Source: Promethearchaeota archaeon | Lineage (GTDB): Archaea > Asgardarchaeota > Lokiarchaeia > Sigyniarchaeales > SOKP01 | Direction of reading: 5' to 3' | Assembly: GCA_048940445.1 (NCBI GenBank) | Contig: JBHLON010000025.1 | Span: 1 to 51,277 of the forward strand | DNA length: 51,277 nt | In this document: positions 48,858-50,179 of the stretch, in pieces | Layout of the letters: the number at the start of each line of letters is the position of its first letter | Numbering within the stretch: position 1 is the stretch's first letter | Made by a program: the position numbers and the translations under genes | Notes under the pieces: model-generated | The model's input: the letters and a program-made list of their open reading frames with translations, nothing else | The model's database searches: none | What the model was told of the DNA's origin: nothing

Positions 48858-50120
48858 TTATGAAGTTATAAGAGGTGGTCCTTTTACTCTCCAGATTGCT
48901 AAATTAAATAATTCATTTTGTTCTATTTGAGGATTGAGCACTAATTTTGGGGAATGATTATGTTCATTAACTAAATTATGGATCGCGAGTCTATCGACTG
49001 CTAACGATAGCAAAATTGGGTTGTTTTCTAAATCCCTAATTGCTAAGAAATAATATTCCATGGTATCAAACGCATTAAATACTTGTGTTCCACTACCTAA
49101 TTTAACCTCAATGATCTTATCCCTCTCTGGCACAATATCACATTCTTCCATACATTCTTCCATAAGAGCCCCTAATTTCTGCATTACCTCCTTGAGTAAG
49201 CCAGCGGACTTTACTAATGATATAAATCCTGGAATCCGAAATTGTTCAAATATTTTTCGTTCTACTTGTTTATGAATAGTGCTCATTCGGATATTTAACC
49301 TTTTGCAGATTTCACTTACGGTGATTGAGGCACTGGGTACACATAGAGCAGAAACAGAAGTTACCACTCCGGTAATAACGGTATCTTTCGTATTTTTGAT
49401 TACTTCCCAGAGCATATCTAGGATTTTTTTTGATTGATAATAGAAATACATACCCAACTCAAAACACTCAGTAATCTCTAAGATTTTTTGAGCTATATAT
49501 TCCTTTCTGTTCCTTTCTTTATACTCTGGTTTAAATTCATGAATTTGAAGTTTGAACGATTGGAAATCCCTCTTGTTAATATGAGAAACTTCTAATAAAG
49601 CGTGCTCATCTATAGGTTTACACTCATATTTACAAGTAAAGTAGATTACTAAAGGAATCAACTTCTCTGGAGTGCGATATTTTGTCCCACGCCCTAATTT
49701 CGAACGGATATCTACAAAGTTGTTAAATACTTTTTTCTTATCAGATTCAGGGAGTGACATTACTTCAAAAATGCGATTCATTTCTATCATCGCCTGTGTG
49801 TTGACGGTCTCATCATTAGACTTGAGGTTATCTAGCTTACTAAGACGATGTAACTTATATGATCGAGGATCCTTTAACCGCTCTTTTATCGACCCGATTT
49901 GTGTCTTTCCTATGGGGGCATATTGCACAATATCCTGATTATAAGGACGATGATATTCTAAAATCTGTAAATCAAGCATAACTCCACAATCTTTACAGAC
50001 ATAGCCTGACTCACTTTTAGTAACATTTTCCGAATCGCATATATCACACCGTAAAGGTGACTCCAAGCCTTTTCGGCTAAATTGAGATTTATTTAAACTT
50101 GCCAACTTACTCAAGATCAC
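48858..50120 (-). CDS. Divergent transcription factor B (TFB/TFIIB) paralog
   Basis: Zinc ribbon CDIC...YVCKDCG; two cyclin-fold repeats (YFTCK...; ITGVVTSVSAL); HTH ITVSEICKRLNIRMSTIHKQ; about 100-aa C-terminal extension. Confidence 0.8.
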   Translation of the reverse strand: MILSKLASLNKSQFSRKGLESPLRCDICDSENVTKSESGYVCKDCGVMLDLQILEYHRPYNQDIVQYAPIGKTQIGSIKERLKDPRSYKLHRLSKLDNLKSNDETVNTQAMIEMNRIFEVMSLPESDKKKVFNNFVDIRSKLGRGTKYRTPEKLIPLVIYFTCKYECKPIDEHALLEVSHINKRDFQSFKLQIHEFKPEYKERNRKEYIAQKILEITECFELGMYFYYQSKKILDMLWEVIKNTKDTVITGVVTSVSALCVPSASITVSEICKRLNIRMSTIHKQVERKIFEQFRIPGFISLVKSAGLLKEVMQKLGALMEECMEECDIVPERDKIIEVKLGSGTQVFNAFDTMEYYFLAIRDLENNPILLSLAVDRLAIHNLVNEHNHSPKLVLNPQIEQNELFNLAIWRVKGPPLITS

Positions 50121-50163
50121 AAATTTCCATTTATTATTAAGAAAAAGAAGATGGGGAGTGGGC

Positions 50164-50179
50164 TTTTTAAATCTTTCGG
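50164..50179 (-). promoter_or_regulatory. Canonical BRE-TATA (CCGAAAGA-TTTAAAAA) of the TFB paralog gene
   Basis: Purine-rich BRE plus TATA box, 43 nt before GTG 50120. Confidence 0.55.

Follow-up and report, generated by a model that had tools for sequence, protein, structure and literature searches.

A divergent TFB paralog of a Loki-type archaeon, the probable sigma-like switch of a gene set with T-rich promoters

The window analysed in this study, a stretch of 51,277 nucleotides from a Loki-type metagenome-assembled genome (MAG; contig JBHLON010000025.1), encodes a divergent paralog of the archaeal transcription factor TFB, here designated TFBx, which, judged from sequence comparisons, probably switches on its gene set in the manner of a bacterial alternative sigma factor. 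We consider it likely, with some room for doubt, that TFBx is a dedicated alternative TFB in a two-step cascade and that it reads, together with TBP, a pyrimidine element. This reading draws on the fold of the protein, the conservation of its recognition helix, a promoter class, linkage, co-occurrence across genomes, and one contrast of helix and element between two families. The gene and its product have the following features:

48858..50102, minus strand: TFBx, divergent TFB paralog, 414 aa from the likely TTG start at 50102
49986..50048, minus strand: Zn ribbon with four cysteines, all of them invariant or almost invariant
49935..49958, minus strand: B-reader region EYHRPY, divergent and conserved in the family
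49533..49817, minus strand: cyclin repeat 1, with an invariant TKxR where canonical TFB has the GR loop
49245..49508, minus strand: cyclin repeat 2
49266..49322, minus strand: HTH, T267 to Q285, with M279, S280, T281, and Q285 of the recognition helix invariant
48861..49163, minus strand: C-terminal extension composed of an acidic linker, three predicted beta strands, and a terminal KGPP

The longest frame (48858-50120, minus strand) opens with a GTG at 50120 and comprises 420 aa; the TTG at 50102 is the likely start codon because the homologs begin with MAT or MAS. Of the Zn-ribbon cysteines, C25, C28, and C45 are invariant and C42 is nearly so, and the match of this region to PF08271 is weak. 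The Pfam TFIIB model PF00382 has no match in TFBx, which scores 21 bits on PRK00423 (family cut-off 384). That the gene encodes a TFB paralog, as the initial annotation had proposed, is nevertheless borne out by profile and fold searches. Alignment of the TFBx family profile with the TFBs of the same genome by hhalign gave a probability of 99% (E 1e-17, 289 columns), and the profile also matches cyclin 1 of human TFIIB. The AF2 model shows a Zn ribbon, two repeats of five helices each, and a tail rich in beta structure, and its top matches in the fold search are TFIIB, TFB, and Brf (Pyrococcus TFB 1ais_B: Z 16.4, rmsd 3.1 over 188 residues; 1d3u: TM 0.76 by target). The cyclin folds of the model are arranged as in TBP-bound TFB. 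A predicted complex of TBP and the TFBx core had a score of 0.00 and was counted neither for nor against. By its modelled fold, TFBx is a genuine member of the TFB family.

The HTH described in the initial annotation as rewired is present as written, and M279, S280, T281, and Q285 are invariant in 120/120 close homologs, in which the recognition helix reads MSTI(H/Q).Q; the change of the helix has therefore been selected and is not the result of decay. The B-reader string EYHRPYNQ (49958-49935) and the C-terminal extension likewise lie where they had been placed. The B-reader is unrecognisable as such, so that productive initiation by TFBx is not assured, a point against a dedicated alternative TFB. 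The extension reaches about 100 aa past cyclin 2 and ends with the conserved KGPP; it has no recognisable fold, and an Atlas search with it was empty. TFBx-type cyclin cores without a Zn ribbon also occur (P0251, P0252, P0267, and short frames in G147:C35 and G149:C5), some of them with other N-terminal regions, and these are possibly inhibitory or repurposed forms.

Besides TFBx, the host genome (93% complete) encodes a further divergent TFB, eight canonical TFBs, and a single TBP with two repeats. All eight canonical TFBs retain TE(V/A/I)T.R.R, and two of them (C21 and C139) match the helix and B-reader strings that had been quoted as canonical. TFBx fails these marks: it lacks the TE(V/A)T.R.R helix and has EYHRPY instead of EWRxF. 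In an unrooted TFB tree, built without eukaryotic and non-Loki sequences, a long branch (2.18, support 100/100) parts TFBx from the eight canonical TFBs. Close homologs are found in 99/134 genomes of the family designated f1, and sister families within the same Loki order have distant ones; elsewhere among 400 Asgard genomes no homolog stood above the canonical-TFB background. On this sequence survey, TFBx is confined to one Loki order. The records of the homologs are mostly labelled Promethearchaeota, and a literature search found no description of the family. The suggestion that the paralog bears on the diversification of TFIIB, Brf1, and TAF1B was not upheld: besides the narrow range of the family, no eukaryote-specific affinity was seen, and Brf chains score no better than TFIIB or TFB against the TFBx model. 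By itself, TFBx is uninformative on the origin of the eukaryotic factors.

The further divergent TFB (L130:2512-3522, minus strand, corresponding to G000:C55:5011-6021), here called the C55 paralog, has a rewritten helix of its own, lies one gene away from a canonical TFB, is near-universal in family f1 (116/134), and probably has a separate conserved function. On C21, a single TBP-like repeat within a 435-aa frame (L136 = G000:C21:2678-2893, plus strand) and the canonical TFB are about 4 kb apart.

The upstream region of TFBx contains the following elements:

50164..50179, minus strand: canonical A-rich BRE and TATA box, CCGAAAGA-TTTAAAAA, conserved in family f1
50155..50159, minus strand: ACTSS element, conserved, 5 nt below the TATA box
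50133..50146, minus strand: T-rich stretch, the "second promoter" of the initial annotation
50198..50215, minus strand: degenerate copy of a dyad (GAGWAGA-N4/5-TCTWCTC), candidate operator

The canonical promoter assigned to the paralog (50179-50164) was confirmed. In 54 distinct promoters of TFBx homologs it forms one unit at fixed spacing, consisting of an A at position -3 of the BRE, the TATA box, ACTSS, and, about 32 nt downstream of the first base of TATA, an invariant T with a purine after it. Of the 54 promoters, 20 have the dyad upstream at a constant distance, which suggests a separate regulator of TFBx. ACTSS occurs as ACTCC or ACTGG, depending on the subgroup; as a target motif of TFBx it was rejected, since the full promoter profile matches the TFBx gene alone in the host genome. 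The T-rich stretch at 50146-50133 does exist, but it is not a second TATA promoter: its score on the profile of the T-rich class described below is 3.6 (5th percentile of true members, 12.2), none of the 54 homolog promoters has a TATA-like octamer at this position, and a site at member level is found in 2/71 upstream regions of TFBx homologs. It overlaps the predicted initiator and more probably represents the initiator and the DNA melted at the canonical promoter; the spacing predicts a transcription start near 50139-50138. Self-reading of TFBx via this stretch is unsupported because it is low-scoring, unconserved, and on the initiator position. In homologs outside family f1 (L094, L197, L203, L204, L205), a G/C-rich stretch that is neither an A-rich BRE nor the module element directly precedes the TATA-like box, and the canonical-promoter step may be specific to f1.

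TFBx lies within a set of genes with strong synteny, in the following termed the module. On one flank are genes for a RadA paralog, a Zn finger, a RadB-like protein, a small membrane protein, and an M50 peptidase, and on the other those for a toroid surface protein, a 193-aa protein, Hef, and DUF1922. Within the window, the module includes:

50488..51273, plus strand: M50 peptidase, first of a gene run in relatives
46365..48689, minus strand: alpha-alpha toroid surface protein, adjoining TFBx in 50/77 loci
43616..45730, minus strand: Hef/FANCM-like helicase
38043..40562, plus strand: Hel308-like helicase
36008..37933, minus strand: HhH-containing membrane protein
30736..34452, minus strand: VirB4/HerA-fold protein with a membrane anchor, its Walker A and B motifs degenerate

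In relatives the run continues after the M50 gene with the small membrane protein, the RadB-like protein, the Zn finger, and the extra RadA, which here would lie past the contig end. The module RadA (L080:186-1427, minus strand, and relatives) is absent from the host assembly, whose contig ends after the M50 gene; it has about 40% identity to both RadA genes of the host genome and carries an extra C-terminal HhH. The model of the VirB4-fold protein (pLDDT 83) matches VirB4 (4ag5; TM 0.65, E 7.5e-11), with HerA equally close by E-value; PDB sequence searches were empty, and neither a GKS/T motif nor a DE pair is present in the aligned orthologs. Since intact Walker motifs are missing, a function as a DNA pump is weakened. 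The membrane genes of the same operon have no Pfam match.

Many genes of the module are preceded by a tract of T residues followed by C, which directly abuts the TATA box and occupies the place of the BRE:

50450..50466, plus strand: T-rich-BRE promoter of the M50 peptidase operon
48745..48761, minus strand: T-rich-BRE promoter of the toroid surface protein gene
46330..46346, minus strand: T-rich-BRE promoter of the 193-aa/Hef/DUF1922 unit
41789..41805, plus strand: T-rich-BRE promoter of a GNAT-like gene
41013..41029, plus strand: T-rich-BRE promoter of an 80-aa ORF
40585..40601, plus strand: T-rich-BRE promoter of a conserved 104-aa gene
38001..38017, plus strand: T-rich-BRE promoter of the Hel308-like helicase gene
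37956..37972, minus strand: T-rich-BRE promoter of the HhH/membrane/VirB4-fold operon, implying a start at 37933
29190..29206, plus strand: T-rich-BRE promoter of a 358-aa gene

Among 163 orthologous promoters of four TFBx-neighbour genes, 156 have this arrangement (47/50, 47/50, 31/32, and 31/31 per gene), and for three of the four the site is mostly located 29-30 nt before the ATG; upstream of an in-operon control gene it was found in 0/44 cases. Positions outside the forced seed are conserved too, and held-out loci contained 26 sites against 2 in the reversed control. A loose version of the pattern occurs 26 times in sense and 18 times in antisense orientation and is denser in convergent regions, and the motif was first read as terminator-like low complexity, an interpretation overturned by the orthologous promoters. 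An unbiased search for k-mers and dyads across all upstream regions gave nothing clear. By its conservation in sequence, the T-rich promoter class at the neighbours of TFBx is real. The initial annotation had proposed that the paralog reads T-rich promoters, possibly including its own; a T-rich class on linked and co-occurring genes agrees with the first part, and the second is the self-reading discounted above. The host genome has 53 intergenic sites, 10 of them in a 22-kb block at 29-51 kb of the window, and the best ones precede genes for RPA subunits, a roadblock/small GTPase pair, the Hel308-like helicase, the HhH membrane operon, endonuclease VII, and a topoisomerase Zn-ribbon protein. 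The RPA, roadblock, MglA-like GTPase, and Zn-finger genes (L104:5091-9507, G000:C30) have the T-rich promoter in common, and in two genomes (G143 and G138) the roadblock/GTPase pair is located inside the module.

A different pyrimidine element is found in the sister family f3. Its member G143, in which the TFBx homolog is named Ca. Prometheoarchaeum syntrophicum, has the same module around a distant TFBx homolog, and in the f3 module promoters the TATA box is preceded by TTYGNT, in most cases 28-30 nt ahead of the ATG. The G143 region has 12 such sites (6 in the reversed control) and G138 has 8 in 27 kb (0 in the control); the module of the window has none. In the held-out genome G139, the VirB4-fold, XPF-like, and surface genes have the pattern before them at 28-29 nt, whereas in G132 and G135, which have no factor or ATPase match, the matches are not at this spacing. 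TTYGNT is informative by its position in the module alone, the genome-wide count in G143 being not clearly above control (26 vs 22). The T-rich motif, in turn, is not enriched in f3 (51 vs 57 in the control). The recognition helix of both f3 proteins reads ASTVY in place of MSTI(H/Q), and this co-variation, which is one contrast between two families, is consistent with direct reading of the element by the helix but does not prove it.

Within family f1, the ratio of motif to control is 2.9 in genomes with and 1.8 in genomes without TFBx (p 0.006 at 90% completeness, kinship not corrected), although strict-pattern counts overlook motif variants in some g1 genomes. The odds ratio for the co-occurrence of TFBx and the VirB4-fold gene is 11 (88/12/14/21; kinship not corrected), compared with 1.7 for the C55 paralog used as control, and in 47 genomes TFBx lies within 30 kb of the VirB4-fold gene. 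Two genomes (G166 and G174) have no match for TFBx or the M50, toroid, or VirB4-fold genes and no motif excess. The correlation of paralog and motif asked for in the initial annotation is visible in these ratios, yet the motif is retained at module genes in seven MAGs of 93-99% completeness with no TFBx match (G239, G158, G235, G168, G181, G193, G222), and in G239 the two genes that flank TFBx elsewhere are adjacent. Such retention is what the initial annotation had named as refuting, and it is the main objection to TFBx as the reader. Assembly dropout may account for it: TFBx is missing from 14/102 genomes with the module, the near-universal C55 paralog from 12/102, and in the closed genome G138 TFBx lies 1.2 Mb from the module.

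The MAGs that keep the motif without a TFBx match also speak for a separate activator, which would bind the T-tract and recruit TFBx or a canonical TFB to promoters without a BRE, TFBx being a co-activator like Sulfolobus TFB3; such an activator could, for instance, be an Orc1/Cdc6 paralog or one of the small proteins of the module. The conserved 193-aa gene of unknown family which travels with TFBx fits this explanation, as does the Sulfolobus UV box ANTTTC, a binding site of Orc1-2 that is similar to the motif (PMC5817253, PMC6061795). However, the UV box is located at -39 to -44, upstream of the BRE, whereas the T-rich motif abuts the TATA box where the HTH of TFB sits; TFB3 lacks a DNA-binding domain, whereas TFBx retains an invariant recognition helix; and this helix differs between f1 and f3 where the element differs. 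We regard a separate activator as unlikely.

Still less likely is that the module is an integrated mobile element of conjugative type with a TFB for its own genes, comparable to those of Asgard viruses and other mobile elements, on which TFBs are encoded (10.1101/2021.07.29.453957). Repeats of TFBx and the VirB4-fold gene do occur in different contexts of multi-copy genomes: G183 has four TFBx copies (L185, L186, L024, L025), some with the VirB4-fold gene, at different chromosomal locations, and their DNA identity of 89-95% looks like recent cassette movement. Against this stand the presence in 99/134 family genomes with stable synteny, the occurrence in a sister family with family-specific promoters, targets scattered over other contigs (RPA, roadblock/GTPase), and the distance of 1.2 Mb between TFBx and module in G138; a viral search was negative, with no viral loci, and an incidental look at the neighbour clusters brought up neither an integrase nor a relaxase. 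We give least weight to the idea that another TFB, most plausibly the C55 paralog, reads the element and that TFBx is a mere neighbour of the regulon or an inhibitor, since that paralog, despite its rewritten helix and its presence in the motif-keeping, TFBx-less genomes G239, G158, G235, and G168, is near-universal in f1, occurs in G166 and G174, two genomes without the module or an excess of the motif, was not found in the motif-bearing G189 and G276, and does not co-occur with the module.

In the preferred reading of TFBx as an alternative TFB, the housekeeping TFB would transcribe TFBx from its canonical promoter with its own control elements (upstream dyad, ACTSS). TFBx would then pair with the TBP of the genome on TATA boxes, its rewritten cyclin-2 helix would read the pyrimidine element in the BRE slot, and about 15-20 transcription units would be turned on; their products would be single-strand DNA-binding proteins, helicases of recombination, the extra RadA, and a membrane complex in which one subunit has the VirB4 fold. 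Binding to TBP and DNA, the direction of the cascade, its trigger, and the role of the regulon are what we infer in this reading. The regulon is most likely a DNA-exchange or repair programme; we see an even chance that it serves DNA exchange, and damage repair or another membrane process each appear considerably less probable. More tentative than the cascade itself is the wider proposal of a sigma-like TFBx in which a change of one helix gives the BRE a new code, the two Loki families reflect co-evolution of helix and element, and a competence- or mating-like programme of DNA exchange and recombination is switched on, in cultured Asgard archaea as well. The two natural pairs of helix and element offer a direct swap test of DNA reading by TFB, and the system can be tested in culture because it is found in a genome whose homolog is named Ca. 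Prometheoarchaeum syntrophicum and in a closed genome of 6,035,313 bp. The regulon suggests that Asgard archaea have a recombination programme that can be switched, possibly one of DNA exchange as well.

In canonical TFB the cyclin-2 HTH reads the BRE (PMC13502027), and TFBx shares with the Pyrococcus woesei core (1ais/1d3u) the Zn ribbon, the two cyclin folds, and the C-terminal HTH; it differs in lacking a PF00382 match, in an identity of 12-16%, in its rewritten HTH and B-reader, and in the extension of about 100 aa. Sulfolobales TFB3, a factor induced by DNA damage, is a paralog tied to recombination and VirB4-type (CedB) genes of the Ups/Ced regulon (PMC6101594, PMC6101591) and, like TFBx, is co-distributed with a recombination/VirB4-type machine. 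TFB3, however, is truncated, without a DNA-binding HTH, and works with TFB1 and Orc1-2 on an upstream box, whereas TFBx is full length with both cyclin folds and the HTH, and its element replaces the BRE. The likeness of the module to the Ced system lies in the VirB4 fold, without shown homology to CedA or Ups, and the ATPase motifs are degenerate here. TFB2 of Sulfolobus acidocaldarius is a full-length paralog with its own regulon (bioRxiv 10.64898/2026.09.06.749720); its promoters have a similar BRE at different spacing and it feeds back on itself, whereas for TFBx the sequence of the element differs and no self-reading was found. The multiple TFBs of haloarchaea and Pyrococcus TFB2 show some promoter specificity, and a divergent B-reader can still support transcription (PMC7289017, PMC13502027); these paralogs lend promoter specificity as TFBx would, but theirs is a degree of specificity via TBP-TFB combinations. 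While it is already known that archaeal TFB paralogs tune promoter use, a BRE whose base composition is the opposite of the usual one and which is paired with a new recognition helix would be new with respect to the literature searched, in which no such purine-to-pyrimidine change was found. The likeness to streptococcal ComX, which belongs to a different protein family and shares no machinery with TFBx, is one of function alone: ComX is an alternative sigma factor which has its own promoter element and controls genes for DNA uptake and recombination.
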